Shown: positions 390 to 30,107 of the stretch, piece after piece
Numbering within the stretch: position 1 is the stretch's first letter
Layout: the number at the start of each line of letters is the position of its first letter
NCBI GenBank assembly: GCA_001001625.1
Contig: LCKU01000002.1
Span: 1-32,728, forward strand
Reading direction: 5' to 3'
DNA length: 32,728 bases
Source of the DNA: Parcubacteria group bacterium GW2011_GWA2_45_30
Lineage (GTDB): Bacteria; Patescibacteriota; Minisyncoccia; Sungbacterales; HO2-52-23
Notes under the pieces: generated by a model
Seen by the model: only the letters and a program-made list of their open reading frames with translations
Told to the model about the DNA's origin: nothing
Database searches by the model: none
Translations under genes and position numbers: made by a program

Positions 390-1525
390 AGGGTCTTGCT
401 TAATTCATAGAAAACTCCGACGACAATCATAGCGCAAATTCCGAATTTCCATACATATGAAAAAGTAGAGAAAACACTTCCCGTATTTTGTTTTATTTTG
501 TGATACATGGCGATGGTAAGCGCCGAATCAATACCGACCGCAATTGCACCCACCGCCCCTATGATAACAATAAAATCATGCATGCCGGCAAGATACAATG
601 CGAATGGAAAAAATACCGCAATAATCCAAGCCAAAACCCGCGGGAATTTGAAATCAAGGTTAAGCAGTATCTGAAAACTTTTCCCAAGAACTATAAACGA
701 AGTAAACGCCGCCAGAAAACCGATTAAACTCCCAAAAAATATCAGATACCCCCCATCAAGAGCCCCTAAACTTGAAATTGTTTCTTCACTCACGCCGATT
801 CCGAATGTTCCAACCACCGCCAGCGCAAACAAAAAATAAAGCGCGGCTGGAATAAGGGTTCCGACAATAATCGCGCGCCGGACACTTGAACGTTCTTTGC
901 CAAGCACCATCACCAAATCAGGAATAACCGCGCCGCCGGACAAAGCAAAGAGCAACACGCCGTAGGGAATAAAAGCATTAAACGGATTAAGCCCGCCGAG
1001 GCGCGAGGCGTCAAAATGGAAAAACAGCAGGAATACAGAAAGAAGAATCGTAAAAACAATCAAAACTGCGGTGAGAATACCGTTAATCGCCGCTTCTTTG
1101 CGCAAAGGCAGAAATGTAATAAGCGCAGTGGCAAGTGTAATCACTGACGCCCAGAACAAACTACCGCCCCCCACGCCAAATTGCAGAAAAATCGTCTGCA
1201 TAAATTTTGAGCCAAGCAGGATATAGGCAAGCAAAACTCCGGTAATTCCAAATAGCGCGGAAAAGCGCGCAAGAAAAACAGCATAACGCCCAAGATAAAT
1301 TTGGGCATAACCGGGCAGACGATGAAATTCGGGAGTGGCCAACACAACCTCGCCATACAACAATTGAAAAAGCAAAATAACGCCGGTTAAAATCACAAGT
1401 TCCAAAACCCCGAACCAAAATCCCACCGCGGCAAAAGAATAAGGAATTGCAAACATCCCCACTCCGATTATCATGCCGGACAGTACAAGTACAGCTTCTA
1501 TAAATTTTGCATTGAAAAACTTCAT
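383..1525 (-). CDS. Amino-acid permease-type multi-pass membrane transporter
   Basis: Long hydrophobic ORF with many TM segments. The N-terminal GMIIGVGMFAIPYSFAAVGFW motif is typical of amino-acid (aromatic amino-acid type) permeases. Start placed at ATG 1525 (MKFFNAKF), since the longer ORF to 1573 overlaps the upstream gene. Its TGA (383-385) overlaps the ATG of the downstream paralog. Confidence 0.6.
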   Translation of the reverse strand: MKFFNAKFIEAVLVLSGMIIGVGMFAIPYSFAAVGFWFGVLELVILTGVILLFQLLYGEVVLATPEFHRLPGYAQIYLGRYAVFLARFSALFGITGVLLAYILLGSKFMQTIFLQFGVGGGSLFWASVITLATALITFLPLRKEAAINGILTAVLIVFTILLSVFLLFFHFDASRLGGLNPFNAFIPYGVLLFALSGGAVIPDLVMVLGKERSSVRRAIIVGTLIPAALYFLFALAVVGTFGIGVSEETISSLGALDGGYLIFFGSLIGFLAAFTSFIVLGKSFQILLNLDFKFPRVLAWIIAVFFPFALYLAGMHDFIVIIGAVGAIAVGIDSALTIAMYHKIKQNTGSVFSTFSYVWKFGICAMIVVGVFYELSKTLW

Positions 1526-3347: not shown

Positions 3348-3593
3348 TTATCTCTTAAATATCATATCTCCTTCTTTGGCGGGTGAATCAAGTTTAACCG
3401 CGACCTCATCGCCTTTTTTGCCCGCCTCAACCGGCTTCTTATCCACCTGCATTGATCCTACTGCCTGCTCAAAATCAGACGTTTTGCCTTTCACGTTAAC
3501 CGTGTCGCCGACCTTAAGCGGCGCGTCAAGTTTTATCACCGCCACTCCGATTTTATCAAAATAATGGATTATTTTACCGAGTTTTTCTTCCAT
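3348..3593 (-). CDS. Small translation elongation factor-like protein (EF-Tu domain 2-like beta-barrel)
   Basis: The 81-aa ORF (GKIIHYFDKIGVAVIKLDAPLKVGDTVNVKGKTSDFEQAVGSMQVDKKPVEAGKKGDEVAVK) matches the pattern of the ~80-90 aa proteins annotated as elongation factor-like in archaea and small-genome bacteria (from memory). Confidence 0.6.
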   Translation of the reverse strand: MEEKLGKIIHYFDKIGVAVIKLDAPLKVGDTVNVKGKTSDFEQAVGSMQVDKKPVEAGKKGDEVAVKLDSPAKEGDMIFKR

Positions 3594-3600
3594 GGAATCG

Positions 3601-3682
3601 CGAACAGCGCTAACAGTAGCGAACAGCGCTAACAGTTTTTCTGTTCGTGCTGTTCGTGACTAATCTGTTCGTGCTGTTAGTG
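3601..3682. repeat. Composite direct plus inverted repeat cluster filling a whole intergenic spacer
   Basis: CGAACAGCGCTAACAGT occurs twice (3601-3617, 3620-3636). It is followed by two copies of the near-complementary CTGTTCGTGCTGTT(C/A)GTG (3641-3658, 3665-3682). The arrangement is A A (TTTTT) B B, giving nested hairpins. It lies exactly between the stop at 3684 and the start at 3593. Confidence 0.8.
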
Positions 3683-3683
3683 C

Positions 3684-4259
3684 TTACATCTCTACTATCT
3701 TATCTTTTTTTATTAACTCCAACAATTTTTCGACCAATTTTTTGGGATCTGAATCATATGCGATCCCGTTATGCACGCGGTGTGATTTTTCCACAATCTC
3801 CCGCATCTCATCCGCCATGCCGCCGGTGCCGGTTAAGACCCCAATGGGCTTTTGATCTTCAAAGGCAACTGTAAATTCATTTAAAGTCCCCATACGTCCG
3901 CAAGAAATAACTATGGCATCGGCCGCGCGGGTAAGCAACAAATTCCTGCCCGCGTAACCAAAGCCGGTATAAATAATGATGTCGTGATTATCCAGCGGCA
4001 ATTCGTATTTTTCCACATGCTCTTTTTCGGATCCGGCCGGCGAGACACCGACCACAAATCCACCCGCCTCTTTGGCTCCGATCGCCGCCCAATAAGGAGT
4101 TCCGGTGGTAGCGCCGGTCACCAAAACCGCGCCGTGTTTAACAATTTGCCGGCCGAGTTCTTTGGTTTTTTCCATAGCATCCGGCGCGCAATGTCCGGTT
4201 TCAGCCGCGCCGGATACGCAGATTTTTATTTTTAGATGGGGGTGAGAAATTGATTGCAT
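3684..4259 (-). CDS. TIGR00725/LOG-like (SLOG Rossmann-fold, lysine-decarboxylase-like family) protein
   Basis: KICVSGAAETG...GAVLVTGATTGTPYWAAIGAKEAGG..VGVSP...IIYTGFGYAGRNLLLTRAADAIVISCGRMGTLNEF fits the LOG/TIGR00725 pattern. Start moved to ATG 4259, because the ORF-track start at 4268 is a TTG. Confidence 0.6.
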   Translation of the reverse strand: MQSISHPHLKIKICVSGAAETGHCAPDAMEKTKELGRQIVKHGAVLVTGATTGTPYWAAIGAKEAGGFVVGVSPAGSEKEHVEKYELPLDNHDIIIYTGFGYAGRNLLLTRAADAIVISCGRMGTLNEFTVAFEDQKPIGVLTGTGGMADEMREIVEKSHRVHNGIAYDSDPKKLVEKLLELIKKDKIVEM

Positions 4260-5852: not shown

Positions 5853-5989
5853 CTTGACTCATTGAAAAGCCAAGGCCCCCTGTTGCGCGGCTTTAACCGC
5901 GCTTATATCATATTCCACAAAGCCGCAGAAATCCCCTACTGAAAATTTTATTAAAACTTCGGAGATTCCTTTTGTGCCTTATGGAATCG

Positions 5990-6300
5990 GAAGGGGCGAT
6001 GATCCGGATCGGAGGACAAATGTGCGACCAATCCTCACATTTGTGATTCATCCTCCCACTTATGTATTCGTCACCATCTCATCAGAAAGAAAGACACTTG
6101 TGTAATTTTAGATCTTCTTCGTGAGAAAGCGTAGAAATAAGTGGGAGGACAAGTGAGTGTCTCTTTTTTGTCCTCCTATCCGGATCTCCATTTCCCGGAT
6201 TCGGGGCTCTTAAGTCCGGCATTTTCAGCCAAACACTTACCGAGGAGGGTCGGAAGTTTTAATCGGAGCCCCGAATCCGGGAAATGGAATATATTCCATA
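5990..6300. other. Non-coding region of nested long inverted repeats; candidate structured RNA(s) or MITE-like elements
   Basis: GATCCGGATCGGAGGACAAA (6001-6020) pairs with TTTGTCCTCCTATCCGGATC (6167-6186) at 19 of 20 positions. CCTCCCACTTA (6051-6061) pairs with TAAGTGGGAGG (6138-6148). A perfect 22-bp stem joins CCATTTCCCGGATTCGGGGCTC (6188-6209) and GAGCCCCGAATCCGGGAAATGG (6266-6287). There is a 16-nt palindrome, ATGGAATATATTCCAT, at 6284-6299. Only short, implausible ORFs are present. Confidence 0.6.
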
Positions 6301-6866: not shown

Positions 6867-6906
6867 AATATCACTCGTCAATCATTTTTATTCAAAACTT
6901 CGGTCT

Positions 6907-6985
6907 GGATAAATGGAGCCGAAAATGTGACGGGATCCCTCCGGCAGAGCCGGCTTCCCTTGTCACATTTTCTCACCATTTATTC
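6907..6985. repeat. Intergenic long hairpin between the exonuclease-WYL gene and the YkuK-like gene
   Basis: AAAATGTGAC (6922-6931) pairs perfectly with GTCACATTTT (6962-6971). The outer pair GGATAAATGG/CCATTTATTC matches at 9 of 10 positions, and there is an inner CCGGC-AGA-GCCGG hairpin. It may terminate the upstream gene. Confidence 0.6.
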
Positions 6986-7053
6986 TCCGTTCCTGCGTTA
7001 ATTGAATAAAAAACGATTGACTCGCTCTTGGGGTTTGCTAAATGTATCCGCCA

Positions 7054-19717: not shown

Positions 19718-19863
19718 GAGGCCGTTGAATAATTACCGGAGGATTATTTTTCGAGCAAGTCCTTCGACTTCGCTCAGGATAAACTGAGCGCGTCGAGAAA
19801 TACAATAAGATGTTAGCTTCTCGACTCCACTTCGTTTCGCTCGAAGAATAATTCAACGGTCTC
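19718..19863. other. Multi-stem structured intergenic element (candidate ncRNA or MITE-like repeat) containing a TCCTTCGACTTCGCTCAGGAT copy
   Basis: The closing stem GAGGCCGTTGAATAATT/AATAATTCAACGGTCTC has one mismatch and one wobble pair. Inner pairs are TTCGAGC/GCTCGAA, the hairpin CGCTCAG-GATAAA-CTGAGCG, and the hairpin GTCGAGAA...TTCTCGAC (8 bp). Confidence 0.6.
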
Positions 19864-22605: not shown

Positions 22606-22622
22606 TCGCTATAGCGATTTTC

Positions 22623-22752
22623 ATCCATTTAGTTTTCAGACACGACTCACGCGCTCCTACGGCGCGTTCGCTAAGGGTTGGACGAAACTTTTCCGCGTCA
22701 TTGCGGAAAACCAAGCAGTTTCGTCCTCCCATTGTCTGAAAACTAAACGGAT
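22623..22752. other. 130-nt multi-stem structured intergenic element (candidate ncRNA or MITE-like repeat)
   Basis: The 20-bp closing stem ATCCATTTAGTTTTCAGACA/TGTCTGAAAACTAAACGGAT has one mismatch. Inside are the hairpin ACGCGC-TCCTACG-GCGCGT and a perfect 10-bp stem GGACGAAACT/AGTTTCGTCC enclosing TTTCCGC-GTCATT-GCGGAAA. Confidence 0.6.
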
Positions 22753-22789
22753 TCAACCGCGTGTATACTCACTTATAAATTTTCCTTTT

Positions 22790-23644: not shown

Positions 23645-24207
23645 CGTTTTCTACCCAATTTCTTTAACGCCTCTTTTACCCGTTTCTCGGCACTGGCAAT
23701 TTCGCGGGGTACGGTCTGCAATGCCTCCCGGGCCTCACGCTGGGAATAGCCAAGTGAGACCAGTGCCTCCAACGCATCCGCTTCCTCTTTTAATTCGGGC
23801 GCGTCAACCTCAATTCCTTTGCCTGCCATTTTGTCGCGGAGCTCCAAAACAATTTTTTCCGCGGTTTTTTTACCTATACCCGAGACCCGCGTCAAATAAG
23901 AAGTGTCGCCCGCGGCAATGGCTTTTTTGATGGTATCCACCGGCGCGATATTCATAACCCCCAAGGCGCTTTTGGGGCCTATGCCGGAGATGCTATTTAG
24001 CGTTTGAAAAAGGTCAAGCTCGGCGAAATTTAAGAATCCGTACAATTCCAACGCATCTTCACGAACCTGAAGATGAGTCCACATTTTAATTGTGCTCCTT
24101 CGACTTCGCTCAGGATTGACTTCGTCAACTTTTTCTGGTATTTTATTTAAGGTCCCTTCGGAACAAAACACTTTATACCCAACCCCGCCGTCGGTTTTTA
24201 TAACCAC
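23641..24207 (-). CDS. ruvA: Holliday junction DNA helicase subunit RuvA (the real N-terminus probably extends to about 24255)
   Basis: GGVGYKV, THLQVREDALELYGF and the HhH motifs GIGPKSA and GIGKKTAEKI are present. The frame upstream of GTG 24207 stays open and encodes IISFLEGTIEFKGAKF, which matches the canonical RuvA N-terminus but has no ATG, GTG or TTG. Confidence 0.85.
   Translation of the reverse strand: MVIKTDGGVGYKVFCSEGTLNKIPEKVDEVNPERSRRSTIKMWTHLQVREDALELYGFLNFAELDLFQTLNSISGIGPKSALGVMNIAPVDTIKKAIAAGDTSYLTRVSGIGKKTAEKIVLELRDKMAGKGIEVDAPELKEEADALEALVSLGYSQREAREALQTVPREIASAEKRVKEALKKLGRKR
24096..24120 (+). repeat. In-frame copy of the TCCTTCGACTTCGCTCAGGAT repeat inside ruvA
   Basis: 21 of 21 nt identical to 19760-19780. 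On the coding strand it translates as NPERSRRS. Confidence 0.75.
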
Positions 24208-24671: not shown

Positions 24672-24700
24672 AGCGTAGCAAACTATCATAAAAATGTCAA
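24672..24700 (-). promoter_or_regulatory. Promoter of the 107-aa gene: TTGACA-N17-TACGCT with TG-extended -10
   Basis: The minus strand reads TTGACA-TTTTTATGATAGTTTGC-TACGCT. The -35 hexamer overlaps the uvrB ATG on the other strand. Confidence 0.5.
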
Positions 24701-26778
24701 CCTTTCGTCTAATCTCAAAATTCAACCCCACCGGAGACCAACCAGTCGCAATCGAAAAACTTGCGGCGAATTTGGATGCCGGTATACGGCACCAAACGCT
24801 TCTCGGCGTTACCGGCTCGGGAAAAACATTCACCATGGCCAATGTGATTGAACGAGTGCAGAAACCGACTCTTGTAATTTCCCATAATAAAACTCTGGCC
24901 ATGCAGCTTTACCAGGAGTTCAAAGAATTTTTCCCGGAAAACGCGGTGCACTATTTTGTTTCCTATTACGACTACTACCAGCCCGAAGCATATATTCCCC
25001 AAACCGACACCTACATCGAAAAGGACACCAAAATCAATGAAATGATTGACGCCCTGCGCCACGCCGCCACTGCATCACTCCTTACTCGGCGCGACGTAAT
25101 CATTGTCGCCTCGGTTTCCTGCATTTACGGCCTGGGCAGTCCGGAAGAATATCAAAAAGCATCTATTGAATTAAAAATGGGCCAGAAAATTTCTCGCCGC
25201 GAATTGCTTCACAATCTTGTAATGCTCCGATACGCGCGCAACCCCATTGATCCGTGCCAAGGGCATTTCCGTACCAGAGAAAATGCTATAGAAATATATC
25301 TGCCGTCTGGAGAAAATAAAATCGCGGTGGAAATCGAAAAAGGCAGAATCACGAATTTACACGAATCAAAAACAAAAACCAACGAATCGCGAAAACTTAA
25401 TCAATTTAGAGTTTATCCGGCCAAGCACTTCGTAACCCCGCAAAACAGCTTAAATCTTGCTATATCCAATATACGGCAAGAACTAAAAGAACGCCTAGCA
25501 GAGTTAAAAAAACGCGGGAAAGTGCTGGAGGCCGCGCGCCTGCGCCAGCGCACCAATTTTGATCTGGAGATGCTTGAAAAAATCGGATACATGAACGGCA
25601 TTGAAAATTATTCCCGGCAACTGGATTTCCGCAAGTCCGGAACCCCTCCACATACGCTTATTGACTACTTCAATTACGCCTTTCAGCACAGACCGTCCGA
25701 AAACTCTAAACACCGGGTGTTTTTTCGTTCAACACCCGGTGTTGACGGACAGTTTTCGGACGGTCTGTACGTATCAAAATGGCTATGCATAATTGACGAA
25801 TCGCATGTAAGCATTCCCCAAATCCGCGGGATGTATGCCGGAGACCACTCGCGCAAAGAAACTCTGATCGAATACGGGTTCCGTCTGCCCTCGGCGCTTG
25901 ATAACCGACCACTCATGTTTAAAGAATTTAACCAAAAAGTTGAACAAATTATATACGCTTCCGCAACTCCAACTGAATATGAGTTGCAGATGAGTAAACA
26001 GTCATACAGGGATCCGATCCCTGTAACACAGGGATCGGATCCATGTATTGTGGAGCAATTAATAAGGCCCACAGGAATTTTAGACCCCAGGATCGAAGTC
26101 CGACCTACAAAAAATCAGATCCACGCTGTTATAGCCGAGATTAAAAAACGGATTGCCAAAAACGAACGCTCGCTTGTTATGGCGCTAACCAAACGCCTAG
26201 CGGAAGACATTGCAGAATACCTTGAAGAGGCGGGAATAAAAGCCAAATATCTTCATTCGGAAGTAAAAACCCTGGAGAGGCCAGAAACACTAAAAAAACT
26301 CCGCACCGGAGAACATGACGTAATTGTCGGAATCAATCTGCTGCGGGAAGGGCTTGATTTACCCGAAGTTTCTTTTATCGCCATATTGGATGCCGACAAA
26401 GAAGGATTTTTGCGAAACATTACCACGCTTTTACAAATCATAGGCCGCGCCGCGCGGCACATAGACGGGAAAGTAACTCTTTATGCTGATACCATGACCG
26501 GCTCCATGCGCGCGGCAATCAATGAAACAAACCGTCGCCGCAAAATTCAGGAAGATTATAACCGAGCACACGGCATTACACCCGCGCAGATAAAAAAAGA
26601 AATAAGAAAATCGCTTCTGGAAGAAACTGCAGCAAAAGATGAATTTCCTATGCCCGATGGCCCCACAGAAAAAATTGTAAAATCCCTGGAGCGCGAAATG
26701 AAAAAGGCGTCGCGCGAAATGAATTTTGAACTGGCCGCCAAAATACGGGATCGGATAATCAGGCAAACTGATCCATAG
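24694..26778 (+). CDS. uvrB: Excinuclease ABC subunit B (UvrB) with two in-frame palindromic insertions
   Basis: Walker A GVTGSGKTFTMA, the DESHVSIPQIRGMY motif, YGFRLPSALDNRPL, helicase C-terminal motifs and a C-terminal UVR domain (EMKKASREMNFELAAKIRDRI). Confidence 0.9.
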   Translation: MSTFRLISKFNPTGDQPVAIEKLAANLDAGIRHQTLLGVTGSGKTFTMANVIERVQKPTLVISHNKTLAMQLYQEFKEFFPENAVHYFVSYYDYYQPEAYIPQTDTYIEKDTKINEMIDALRHAATASLLTRRDVIIVASVSCIYGLGSPEEYQKASIELKMGQKISRRELLHNLVMLRYARNPIDPCQGHFRTRENAIEIYLPSGENKIAVEIEKGRITNLHESKTKTNESRKLNQFRVYPAKHFVTPQNSLNLAISNIRQELKERLAELKKRGKVLEAARLRQRTNFDLEMLEKIGYMNGIENYSRQLDFRKSGTPPHTLIDYFNYAFQHRPSENSKHRVFFRSTPGVDGQFSDGLYVSKWLCIIDESHVSIPQIRGMYAGDHSRKETLIEYGFRLPSALDNRPLMFKEFNQKVEQIIYASATPTEYELQMSKQSYRDPIPVTQGSDPCIVEQLIRPTGILDPRIEVRPTKNQIHAVIAEIKKRIAKNERSLVMALTKRLAEDIAEYLEEAGIKAKYLHSEVKTLERPETLKKLRTGEHDVIVGINLLREGLDLPEVSFIAILDADKEGFLRNITTLLQIIGRAARHIDGKVTLYADTMTGSMRAAINETNRRRKIQEDYNRAHGITPAQIKKEIRKSLLEETAAKDEFPMPDGPTEKIVKSLEREMKKASREMNFELAAKIRDRIIRQTDP
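25688..25768. repeat. 81-nt double-stem palindromic element inserted in frame in uvrB
   Basis: Perfect 18-bp outer inverted repeat (25688-25705 with 25751-25768) and perfect 13-bp inner inverted repeat (25709-21 with 25731-43). Confidence 0.85.
26010..26042. repeat. 33-nt hairpin (perfect 15-bp stem) inserted in frame in uvrB
   Basis: GGATCCGATCCCTGT (26010-26024), loop AAC, then ACAGGGATCGGATCC (26028-26042). Confidence 0.8.
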
Positions 26779-29047
26779 TTTTCCAGCTTGTGCTTATACG
26801 CGATCGCATATAGAGACCCACGGGCAAGCCCGTGGTACTCCGCACCTTCCAGTAATTTTGCAAAATGCGTATATGCTTTGCAAAATTACTGGGTCTATAT
26901 AATCCCCTTTTCTCCATTTCCTCAAGTTTGCGTTTTAACTCCGGAGCGCAAGAAAGTGCTGGATCTTCACGCGCAAATTCCAACGCGGCCAAGCGCACTT
27001 CGCGCACCAAGACCGGGTCGGTGATTGCAGTAAGAGCCATATCGGACACGCCCCATTGTTCCGTGCCGAACATATTGCCCGGACCGCGGATTTTTAAATC
27101 CTGTTCTGCCAGTTCAAAACCGTTTTTGGCATCCACCACCGCGCGCAAACGACGCGTAACCATCCCGTCTTCGGTAGGAAAAAGGAAACAGTAGGACTGC
27201 TCAATACCTCTTCCGATCCTGCCACGAAACTGGTGCAATTGCGCCAGGCCGAACCGTTCCGCCCCCTCAATCATCATGATAGTGGCATTAGGTATATCCA
27301 CCCCGACTTCCACCACGGACGTTGATACTAGAATATCTATTTCTCCGCTTTTGAATTCTTTCATCACCGCTTCTTTTTCTTTGGATTTTAATTTGCCGTG
27401 AAGCATTCCTATTTTAAATTCCGGAAAAATAATTTCGGAAAGTTTTTTATATTCATCTTTTACCGCCCTCACCTCCCACGAACGAAACGCTGATTCGTTT
27501 ATTCGTTTATTCGCGCCGGATTCGCTATTAGTTAATGGTGGTTCTATACGCGGACATATCACGAAAACTTGTCTTCCTGTTCTTACTTCTGATCGAATAA
27601 GTTGGTATGTCTCATTCCGTTTCCCCGGCTCTATGATTCTCGTAATAACCCGCTTCCGCGATTTGGGCATTTCATCTAGTATGGAAAGATCGAGATCGCC
27701 ATAAATTGTAAGGGCTAGAGTTCGGGGAATTGGAGTTGCAGACATAGATAAGAAATGGGGTAACCAACCCGAATATCCACGAGCCAGGGCCGCACGTTGT
27801 GCAACACCAAATCTATGTTGTTCATCTACTATGACCAGGCCTAAATTTTTGAAGACGACATCTTTTTGTATCAAGGCATGGGTTCCAACGATGATATCAG
27901 ATCCTTCCGCAATTTTTTTAGAAGAAGTAAGTACTCCGATTTTTATATTAAACGATTTAAGAATTTTTTGCAGGGTCTCATAATGCTGATGTGCCAAAAT
28001 TTCCGTCGGTGCCATAAAAACCGTCTTAAATCCGGCTCGCGAGGCAAGTAACGCGGCCGCGGCCGCAACCACGGTCTTGCCGGATCCCACATCTCCTTCC
28101 AGCAGCCGATTCATGGGTTTTGATTTTTCTATGTCTTTTACGATCTCCCAGATAGAACGGCGCTGGGCATCGGTCAGCGCAAACGGCAGGGAATTTACGA
28201 ATTTTTTGAGGAGTTCAAGATCCAGCAGAATTTCCGGCGCTTGGTGCTGTTTTAATTCCGCGCGCGCGTGTAGGGCGCGAAGCTGAATCAAAAGCAATTC
28301 CTCAAACACGAAGCGCCGCCGCGCTTCAACCGGCTCCTTTTTGCTTTGCGGGAAATGAATTATTTTAATCGCGGCCTGTATATCTTGTAAATTATGCTTT
28401 TTTCGCAAATCGGCGGGCAGGGGATCGACAATAAATTTTCGCTGGTCAATAAATGTTTTTACTAAAAAACGGAACCAGCGCGAAGTAAGGCCGCGGGTTT
28501 CCGGATAAATTGCGACCAGTCCTCCAGTATGTATGCCGCCACCATTCGCCATTTGCCATTTGTTATTTGTTATCTTTTCATACGCCGGGCCTTGCAAATA
28601 AATTCCTTTGGGGCCGCGGGCAATTTTCCCGGACAAATTTACCACATCACCAACCCTCAAATTCCTTGCTAAAAACGGCTGGTTAAACCAAATCGCCTTA
28701 AGCGATCCGCTATCATCCGAGATTACCGCCTCCACCAGCGCCATGTGCTTGCGCGCCGTGCGATGCAGAGAAATTTTTTTAATCGCGCCGGATATGGTTA
28801 CCGTATCGCCAATTTTCACATCAGATATTTTTTGTAAATTTGAAAAGTCATCGTAACGCGCAGGAAAATGAAATAAAATATCGCGAATGGTTTTTATCCC
28901 AAGGTGTTTAAGCGCCGGAACAATCCGGCGGCTTATGCGTGGCGCATTTTCAATTGGGGTGTCTAAAAGAGACATGAGATGTCCTATTGAAGTCGGACTT
29001 CGATACTTCTCTTCCAAAGTCGATAAACCCAGAGGATGATTCAACAT
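26759..29047 (-). CDS. recG: ATP-dependent DNA helicase RecG, with in-frame repeat tracts and a C-terminal extension
   Basis: Wedge-domain region, Walker A GDVGSGKT, DEQHRFG, a helicase C domain, and KIRGPGNMFG near the end. ATG 29047 follows TAAAAT-N6, and ATG 28975 is an alternative start. The 3' end overlaps the uvrB 3' end by 20 nt. Confidence 0.85.
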   Translation of the reverse strand: MLNHPLGLSTLEEKYRSPTSIGHLMSLLDTPIENAPRISRRIVPALKHLGIKTIRDILFHFPARYDDFSNLQKISDVKIGDTVTISGAIKKISLHRTARKHMALVEAVISDDSGSLKAIWFNQPFLARNLRVGDVVNLSGKIARGPKGIYLQGPAYEKITNNKWQMANGGGIHTGGLVAIYPETRGLTSRWFRFLVKTFIDQRKFIVDPLPADLRKKHNLQDIQAAIKIIHFPQSKKEPVEARRRFVFEELLLIQLRALHARAELKQHQAPEILLDLELLKKFVNSLPFALTDAQRRSIWEIVKDIEKSKPMNRLLEGDVGSGKTVVAAAAALLASRAGFKTVFMAPTEILAHQHYETLQKILKSFNIKIGVLTSSKKIAEGSDIIVGTHALIQKDVVFKNLGLVIVDEQHRFGVAQRAALARGYSGWLPHFLSMSATPIPRTLALTIYGDLDLSILDEMPKSRKRVITRIIEPGKRNETYQLIRSEVRTGRQVFVICPRIEPPLTNSESGANKRINESAFRSWEVRAVKDEYKKLSEIIFPEFKIGMLHGKLKSKEKEAVMKEFKSGEIDILVSTSVVEVGVDIPNATIMMIEGAERFGLAQLHQFRGRIGRGIEQSYCFLFPTEDGMVTRRLRAVVDAKNGFELAEQDLKIRGPGNMFGTEQWGVSDMALTAITDPVLVREVRLAALEFAREDPALSCAPELKRKLEEMEKRGLYRPSNFAKHIRILQNYWKVRSTTGLPVGLYMRSRISTSWKTMDQFA
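26808..26903. repeat. Composite palindromic element within the recG 3' coding end
   Basis: Perfect 16-bp stem CCAGTAATTTTGCAAA (26849-64) with TTTGCAAAATTACTGG (26877-92), the hairpin CCACGGG-CAAG-CCCGTGG (26818-35), and an imperfect outer pair ATATAGAGACCC/GGGTCTATATAAT. Confidence 0.8.
27493..27525. repeat. CGAAT repeat cluster inserted in frame in recG
   Basis: ATTCG occurs at 27493, 27501, 27509 and 27520 (spacings 8, 8, 11). The reverse complement, GCGAAT-N5-GCGAAT-AA-ACGAAT-AA-ACGAAT, matches the motif and spacing of the intergenic cluster at 4275-4307. Confidence 0.75.
28543..28570. repeat. Four tandem heptamers (CATTCGC CATTTGC CATTTGT TATTTGT) inside recG
   Basis: Read directly from the sequence. 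The coding strand translates them as NNKWQMANG. Confidence 0.8.
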
Positions 29048-29978: not shown

Positions 29979-30107
29979 TCTTCGGCGGCAAATTATAGAT
30001 AACATCCGGTGAGATTATTTTCAGTTACATTGTGGTTTTTTTCTCTACAAAAAGTGTTGAAAGAATCCTTGTGTCTAAAATGTGATGTCGCGACAAGGAC
30101 ATTCAAA

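Follow-up and report, generated by a model that had tools for sequence, protein, structure and literature searches.

A dispersed 81-nt palindromic repeat lies in frame in uvrB of a Parcubacteria bacterium

Rickettsia palindromic elements (RPEs) are palindromic repeats that lie in frame in many genes (Ogata et al. 2000 Science 290:347; 2002 Genome Res 12:808, as cited in PMC10969869). Repetitive extragenic palindromic (REP) sequences of the GTAG and CGTC types are likewise found inside genes in several phyla, notably in uvrA, uvrB, uvrC, recBCD, polA and dnaE, a distribution judged not to be fortuitous (Di Nocera et al. 2013; PMC3733652), and the hosts of such intragenic copies include R. conorii and X. 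autotrophicus uvrC (PMC3733652 supplement). Here we describe element A, a double-stem palindrome inserted in frame in uvrB of Parcubacteria group bacterium GW2011_GWA2_45_30 (GCA_001001625.1). The stretch analyzed, referred to as the window, comprises positions 1-32,728 of LCKU01000002.1 (32,728 nt), and coordinates given without a locus name refer to it. [quoted passage not shown] At least eight copies are known, of which at least three are in frame in genes (uvrB, uvrC and the gene for the C chain of a split transketolase) and at least five are intergenic.

Element A resembles the RPEs as a dispersed palindromic repeat that sits in frame in unrelated housekeeping genes and adds a short peptide at fold-compatible positions, and here too several families occur together in a small, gene-dense genome. 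However, the host belongs to the Candidate Phyla Radiation (CPR; Parcubacteria/Sungbacteria) rather than to Rickettsia, so that element A, whose likeness to the RPEs is one of features, is at most an analogue and not a member. The two also differ in size (81 bp versus about 100-150 bp for RPE-1), and element A differs further in the number of its known copies, total and coding, as given above. The GTAG and CGTC REPs are similar in being short palindromes, often arranged as inverted dimers that fold into a larger hairpin, and in being mostly intergenic, with some lying wholly within open reading frames (ORFs), where they encode 20-30 residues. In addition, the CGTC type is without a known dedicated transposase (PMC3733652). 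Element A nevertheless fails to match the published CGTC unit (a stem of 8-9 bp whose first two pairs are A/T, a loop of 4-5 nt and a CCA tail) on either strand; its own stems measure 18 bp (outer) and 13 bp (inner), the inner one closed by a loop of 9 nt. The tetranucleotide CGTC does occur in it, immediately before the inner 3' arm when read on the minus strand, where it abuts the inner hairpin, and again inside each outer arm, but always internally and not at a unit end. The inner part is composed of two 13-nt palindromes in inverted orientation, separated by a 9-nt spacer, and these are far shorter than described REPs.

Two further classes of bacterial repeat are close in some respects. 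REPINs (REP doublets forming hairpins) and element A are both non-autonomous and both lack target-site duplications, as predicted by the chemistry of IS200/IS605-type insertion sequences (IS) (Bertels and Rainey 2011, PMC3116915; PMC3337134). REPINs are, however, extragenic by definition, of the GTAG type, present in tens to hundreds of copies and accompanied by a single-copy gene for a REP-associated tyrosine transposase (RAYT) (PMC3116915), whereas element A contains neither GTAG nor CTAC in its 81 nt and three of its eight copies are genic. The genes on the roughly 110 kb of this genome that were covered include no RAYT (Y1 transposase) gene. MITEs (Correia/NEMIS, ERIC, BOX and Nezha; PMC10969869) share with element A a small size, terminal inverted repeats (perfect over 18 bp in element A) and the lack of a transposase ORF, and they can create in-frame fusions and fold in RNA (PMC10969869). 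On the other hand, they normally duplicate their target site and have the same ends as a resident IS. For element A, no duplication was found at the eight copies and no such IS in the loci examined. Compact multi-stem repeats that spread in small gene-dense genomes, also within coding and rRNA genes, are further known as the double-hairpin or repetitive hairpin elements of fungal and sponge mitochondria. Being organellar and unrelated in sequence, these resemble element A in form only.

An earlier reading of this DNA (the original prediction) had stated that no named equivalent is known for this type of genome. This holds for the CPR/Patescibacteria, for which our literature search, of incomplete coverage, found no report of in-frame palindromic elements. 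It is too narrow in placing the phenomenon in Rickettsia, given the intragenic REPs of several phyla, uvrA, uvrB and uvrC included (PMC3733652). The phenomenon itself is thus known; what is new is the phylum, the recurrence at fixed loops in many lineages and the pairing of uvrB with uvrC.

The protein encoded by uvrB in the window is 100% identical to GenBank KKU06377.1 (P0121) of Parcubacteria group bacterium GW2011_GWA2_45_30. UvrB structures in the PDB match it at E about 1e-231, it contains the Pfam domains UvrB, UvrB_inter, Helicase_C and UVR, and its helicase motifs are all intact. As the gene is otherwise intact, a functional protein that includes the extra loop is most likely produced. 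Its closest homologues are annotated as Candidatus Sungbacteria, and the host is a CPR bacterium close to that group.

Element A consists of two nested perfect inverted repeats (Table 1). Both had been located by the original prediction, which described the inner pair as exact complements; the pairing is indeed perfect, but the relation between the arms is that of reverse complements. Its description of the outer palindrome as 81 nt or 27 codons long, with the frame kept, is borne out within the uvrB ORF. Perfect inverted repeats of 18 nt are expected by chance about 3e-5 times in a window of 32.7 kb. Folding the element, one of the checks that had been suggested, gave -59.2 kcal/mol for the RNA of 25660-25800, far more stable than shuffled sequences (-30.4 +/- 3.5; z = -8.3, with 0/200 as good). 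A scan against Rfam returned only sub-threshold matches to miRNA-like hairpins. Three of the six reading frames through the element are free of stop codons (+0, +2 and -2). The frame read in uvrB is +2, which adds RPSENSKHRVFFRSTPGVDGQFSDGL to the protein.

In an alignment with B. caldotenax UvrB (PDB 2fdc), residues 328-362 (35 aa) of the window protein replace 2 residues between ...LLDYFP and FLIIVDESH (motif II), which is where the element had been placed, between DYF and motif II. The structural context was examined in an AlphaFold model built from 43 sequences (mean predicted local distance difference test score, pLDDT, 75). Residues 333-358 are modeled without secondary structure at a pLDDT of <50, with a helix (322-330) on one side and the strand of motif II (364-368) on the other. 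The same applies to residues 440-447, flanked by a helix (428-436) and a strand (452-455). Both low-confidence loops are thus predicted to lie between well-modeled core elements. Judging from the model, the insert of element A occupies a position compatible with the fold, as a predicted surface loop, and this position is also an indel hotspot in the family. We infer that element A is translated and that both UvrB inserts are tolerated.

The census of element A started from uvrB, and the first extra copy was found through other assemblies of the uvrB locus. A scan of metagenome contigs with the pattern CCGGGTGTTN{7,11}AACACCCGG was too generic and returned mostly unrelated terminator-like hairpins, along with at least five true copies, and four further contigs of the same aquifer samples were found to carry the element at full length. 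A search with the peptides of the three open frames returned three proteins and two further sites; it missed UvrB itself and is therefore no census. In all, the search for further copies that had been called for yielded at least seven sites besides uvrB, in keeping with the predicted selfish palindromic element in coding sequence. The copies are 92-100% identical, each exactly 81 nt long, and their flanks are unrelated. When the eight are aligned, homology begins and stops precisely at the ends of the 81-nt unit. No target-site duplication or other flanking direct repeat is present at any of the eight, and no target-site motif was found among them.

The coding copies are not all read alike. 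Transketolase also reads RPSENSKHRVFFRSTPGVDGQFSDGL, whereas uvrC uses frame +0 and reads the unrelated peptide TDRPKTLNTGCFSVQHPVLTDSFRTVC. The use of two frames, together with the existence of non-coding copies, rules out an origin at the protein level. The uvrC and transketolase hosts were matched to PDB structures of UvrC (3c65, 2nrr) and of a split transketolase (6yaj), and in both the insert falls between aligned blocks. The coding copies persist only in stop-free phases, at loops that vary in the family. Besides the site near the small GIY-YIG gene and the rpoB-rpoC spacer, the intergenic contexts include a site beside an HSP20 gene, one between two glycan-related genes and one between convergent genes. 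The intergenic copies occur in both orientations, and the genes adjoining the copies are housekeeping genes only.

The contigs with the other copies appear, by several features of their sequence, to be of the same or a very close genome. Two more families of repeats, a nested palindrome of ~169 nt and a hairpin cluster of ~163 nt, are common to them and the window (93-100% identity), and the homologues of the UvrC on L140 are likewise from Sungbacteria. In addition, P0129 is an assembly chimera that joins the left flank of the transketolase copy (in another frame) to element A and the right flank of the uvrC copy, as expected for a repeat within one population.

Table 1. Coordinates of uvrB, the copies of element A and other repeats
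Feature	Sequence	Position	Strand	Description
uvrB	window	24694..26778	+	694 aa ORF; carries two in-frame palindromic insertions
Element A (uvrB copy)	window	25688..25768	+	81-nt (27-codon) double-stem palindromic repeat, in frame in uvrB (frame +2)
Outer stem 5' arm, ACAGACCGTCCGAAAACT	window	25688..25705	+	18 nt; resembles terminal inverted repeat
Outer stem 3' arm, AGTTTTCGGACGGTCTGT	window	25751..25768	+	perfect reverse complement of 5' outer arm
Inner stem 5' arm, AACACCGGGTGTT	window	25709..25721	+	13 nt; itself 6+1+6 palindrome
Inner stem 3' arm, AACACCCGGTGTT	window	25731..25743	+	13 nt; itself 6+1+6 palindrome
Element A copy	L001/L002	21654-21734		intergenic; 9.6 kb downstream of uvrB copy
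Element A copy	L117	154-234		in frame (+2), split-transketolase C chain
Element A copy	L140	1691-1771		in frame (+0), uvrC
Element A copy	L167	6122-6202		intergenic; 14 nt downstream of small GIY-YIG gene
Element A copy	L137 (= L132)	1173-1253		intergenic
Element A copy	L207	1635-1715		rpoB-rpoC spacer
Element A copy	L208	612-692		intergenic
Element B	window	26004..26048	+	45-nt (15-codon) palindrome in uvrB, unrelated to element A; encodes roughly KQSYRDPIPVTQGSD
~163-nt hairpin-cluster repeat, partial	window	26809..26908		uvrB-recG spacer; truncated at 26908
~169-nt nested-palindrome repeat	window	22606..22774		intergenic; outer 20-bp and inner 17-bp stems
21-nt exact repeat in ruvA	window	24096..24116	-	in frame, encodes ...NPERSRRS...; identical at 19760-19780, intergenic hairpin

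To place the insert within the family, 118 UvrB homologues (base length about 650 aa) were aligned with MAFFT. Insertions are concentrated at two main hotspots (query residues about 331 and about 440), and a third, minor hotspot lies at about 229. Site 1, which holds element A in the window protein, is mostly empty in relatives (DYF..A-xG-xN-FLTxIDESH), while the clade closest to the window UvrB carries varied, unrelated inserts there. In the UvrB of GCA_016180435.1 (81% identical), site 1 is occupied by another hairpin and site 2 by the 45-nt palindrome that is also present in the window. A loop of the same length and conserved sequence in close relatives, which the original prediction had named as the finding that would speak against it, is thus not what the relatives show; they are empty or hold unrelated inserts. 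Inserts of 6 aa or more number 37 in the 81 Parcubacteria uvrB loci. Of these, 12 are the most stable fold among all windows of the same length in their own gene (z -2.6 to -9.6), and the rest look decayed. The inserts of L044 and L071 have second copies inside their own 20-kb locus.

One insert belongs to a described family. The L020/L040 insert at residue about 229 is a dimer of CGTC-type REPs (TGTC-ATTCCCGC-GAAA-GCGGGAAT-CCA), and it encodes SFPRKRES..., a peptide that is also found in the CGTC-1 REP of R. conorii RC0382 (PMC3733652 supplement). The two REPs lie head to head, in frame in uvrB, at 6639-6710 of L020 and 10677-10748 of L040, and CGTC-type REPs are also present in L022, L041, L042 and L071. 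A scan for such units ([C/T]GTC, an 8-9 bp stem starting with AT, a 4-5 nt loop and a CCA or CTA tail) found 16 in the relatives' loci versus 0 in shuffled sequences.

UvrC has hotspots as well, at residues about 198 and 392-410, each filled in 16/120 homologues. A second palindrome of uvrC (L140 1115-1156; 42 nt, 14 codons, 95% complementary) lies near the first of these hotspots. Three loops of UvrB and two of UvrC have thus been colonized repeatedly in dozens of Parcubacteria lineages, and the clustering of the UvrB insertions at three loops is best explained by selection against insertions elsewhere. Parcubacteria uvrB also hosts inteins, as seen in two homologues of 1194-1214 aa (P0107 and P0120) with intein and homing-endonuclease Pfam domains (PF14528, PF14890). 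We make no general claim of an enrichment of hairpins in CPR ORFs; perfect hairpins in long ORFs amount to 94.8 per Mb in the Parcubacteria loci versus 117 per Mb in unrelated metagenome contigs, a biased control over which there is no excess, and both values exceed those of shuffled sequences.

The second insertion in the window UvrB, element B, is absent from the original prediction. Its arms are 21 nt long and 95% complementary, and it matches a 15-aa insertion relative to 2fdc (residues 435-449). In GCA_016180435.1 it is a perfect 22+1+22 palindrome. Only 2/45 nt differ between the two genomes, versus 22.4% for the rest of uvrB (p = 0.0017). No second copy was detected in the sequences examined. 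Although unrelated in sequence, the inner part of element A, element B and the site-1 insert of GCA_016180435.1 have the same design, namely two short palindromes with complementary central bases whose centers are exactly 22 nt apart. This does not extend to a rule, however, as the spacing is confined to these three elements of the lineage and, more loosely, the L020/L040 REP dimer, and other inserts do not fit it.

Taken together, element A is a recently active, RPE/REP-like element that entered uvrB in frame, its copies being inferred to be recent from their 92-100% identity. A trans-acting enzyme would copy it, probably through a hairpin or single-stranded intermediate, by analogy with the REP/RAYT and IS200/IS605 elements, which are also duplication-free. 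With a length of 3n and three stop-free frames, a copy landing in a compatible phase in a permissive loop would add only 27 residues and could persist, while selection would purge insertions except in intergenic DNA or permissive loops. A candidate lead for a mobilizing nuclease may be the stand-alone GIY-YIG gene (128 aa; region 5725-6202 of L167) that directly precedes one copy of element A. UvrC also has a GIY-YIG domain, and the adjacency may quite possibly be coincidental. An invariant 20-mer of element A had no match in viral contigs.

Several observations weigh against this explanation. Gene tables and Pfam scans of about 110 kb of the genome contain no transposase or other mobilizing gene, and BLAST of the loci examined returned 81-nt copies only, with no longer element that shares the ends of element A. 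The protein clusters include no empty-site allele of uvrB or uvrC, so that insertion is deduced from comparison rather than seen as a polymorphism; P0131 lacks an unrelated 19 aa yet retains element A. The stems show weak covariation (97.6% of cells paired, 2 double changes, 27/500 shuffles as good, in 8 copies), which indicates that the hairpin is intact mainly through the youth of the copies and gives no sign that the structure is needed. Lastly, the single-copy element B shows about fivefold higher conservation than the uvrB sequence around it, which pure decay of selfish DNA does not predict.

Other origins of the palindromes fare worse. That the palindrome is an artefact of assembly or amplification, such as a chimeric fold-back, has a negligible chance of being true. 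Repeats do disturb assemblies here (110 nt are absent at position 26908, two contigs end there and P0129 is a chimera), but the same 694-aa UvrB is found on at least 24 contigs in 38 blocks of the collection, which come from independent assemblies (JGI, ENA and NCBI) made from different aquifer samples with different assemblers, and element A is in frame, 3n long and flanked by collinear sequence in all assemblies of the locus. The artefact that the original prediction had allowed for is thereby set aside. It is very improbable that the segment is a lineage-specific UvrB loop under selection at the protein level, with incidental palindromy of the DNA. The intact reading frame and the variability of the site, where many relatives have extra residues, agree with such a loop, but these 81 nt are also present at seven further sites, including five outside coding sequence, uvrC reads them as an unrelated peptide, the closest relative differs in sequence at the site despite a protein identity of 81%, and the insert is predicted to be unstructured. 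Somewhat less improbable, though still improbable, is that palindromes were made in place, by template switching during replication or hairpin-templated repair at fragile loop-coding sites. This would fit the unrelated palindromes at the same three UvrB sites in different lineages, the 22-nt design shared without sequence similarity and the lack of a second element B. As the main process for element A it is excluded by the eight near-identical copies at unrelated sites. The second copies of the L044 and L071 inserts and the membership of the L020/L040 insert in a dispersed REP family also argue against it.

An alternative that we regard as unlikely, although it has more in its favor than these, is that the hairpins have been co-opted into a cis-acting role, as DNA or RNA structures, in genes of nucleotide excision repair (NER). 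They could, for example, give the uvrB and uvrC mRNAs a common binding or RNase target through which both are co-regulated, or modulate repair capacity and mutation rate. A mobile origin would be compatible with it. Of the three coding copies of element A, two fall in NER genes (uvrB and uvrC), and both genes hold two palindromes. The DNA of element B is conserved, and all four substitutions that affect one side of a stem of element A leave a G-U pair on the plus strand. The clustering of intragenic REPs in uvrABC, recBCD and polA, judged not fortuitous by Di Nocera et al. (PMC3733652), points the same way. Against recruitment, five of the eight copies are intergenic, in assorted contexts and both orientations, the remaining coding copy lies in a transketolase, the census of at least eight copies was itself ascertained through uvrB, and the covariation of the stems is not significant. 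Moreover, the relatives' inserts at the same loops are unrelated and many are decayed, which fits tolerance rather than function. It is doubtful that the hairpins in CPR excision-repair genes are anything other than random survivors, that is, that they are targeted to these genes or kept there for a function, although the repeated colonization of UvrB and UvrC loops would fit such a reading. A functional or mechanistic link to repair is nonetheless kept open by the conservation of element B, the shared 22-nt design and the share of coding copies in excision-repair genes. If real, and together with the repair-gene bias in Proteobacteria, Opitutus and Rickettsia, it would mean that hairpin repeats and repair genes are linked in a general way, in several phyla. 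Such a link could lie in the mechanism of insertion, with single-stranded or hairpin DNA intermediates meeting the repair machinery, or in a regulatory or mutation-rate function.

The genome contains other repeats. The ~163-nt hairpin cluster, partial in the window, has copies at 7799-7961 of L140 (98%) and 8026-8133 of L208 (100%). At its truncation point, position 26908 in the uvrB-recG spacer, the window lacks 110 nt that are present in four other assemblies (L001-L004; 12216-12325 of L001) and that include the recG stop codon, so that the recG ORF of the window is 762 aa rather than the called 694. Two contigs, L005 and L006, end exactly at this point. Since the junction lies inside a dispersed hairpin repeat, the window probably holds a repeat-induced assembly collapse here. 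Beyond position 29994, L003 (15412-19403) departs from L001 and the other assemblies, with a weak resolvase match, L10/L12 genes and palindromes of its own, which suggests a strain-level rearrangement at repeat-rich DNA.

The ~169-nt nested palindrome has a second copy at 3305-3473 of L117 (93-96% identical), and the genome thus holds several such palindrome families. A 25-nt piece of it adjoins the L001 copy of element A. The 21-nt repeat in ruvA may be the remnant of another small element in a repair/recombination gene. A long intergenic region beside tRNA-Arg (5880-6290) contains inverted repeats at 6001-6020/6167-6186 and 6051-6070/6130-6149 and a perfect one of 23 nt at 6187-6209/6266-6288. 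It has no Rfam match at the gathering threshold, and could be an unannotated structured RNA or comprise further repeat elements. Two more intergenic hairpins are found at 3585-3690 (-45 kcal/mol), made of repeated GCGAACAGCGCTAACAGT-like units, and at 6905-7003 (-38 kcal/mol), the latter with a diverged copy (about 80%) at 4538-4632 of L167. A perfect 46-nt palindrome occupies 8590-8635 of L140. Other strong folds in coding sequence of the window were considered as insertions and rejected, being mostly ordinary imperfect structure in conserved sequence.

These observations extend protein-coding palindromes, tied mainly to Rickettsia for 25 years, to the CPR, whose genomes of about 1 Mb have almost no intergenic room for selfish DNA. 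The contigs of this genome break or fuse at such repeats, and P0129 is a resulting mis-join in public data. Some lineage-specific insertions in conserved CPR proteins are DNA of repeat elements and not adaptive, which affects annotation, phylogenetic alignments and structure prediction. The copies in both uvrB and uvrC and the repeated use of the same loops add an independent data point, from another phylum, on the association of hairpin repeats with DNA-repair genes.

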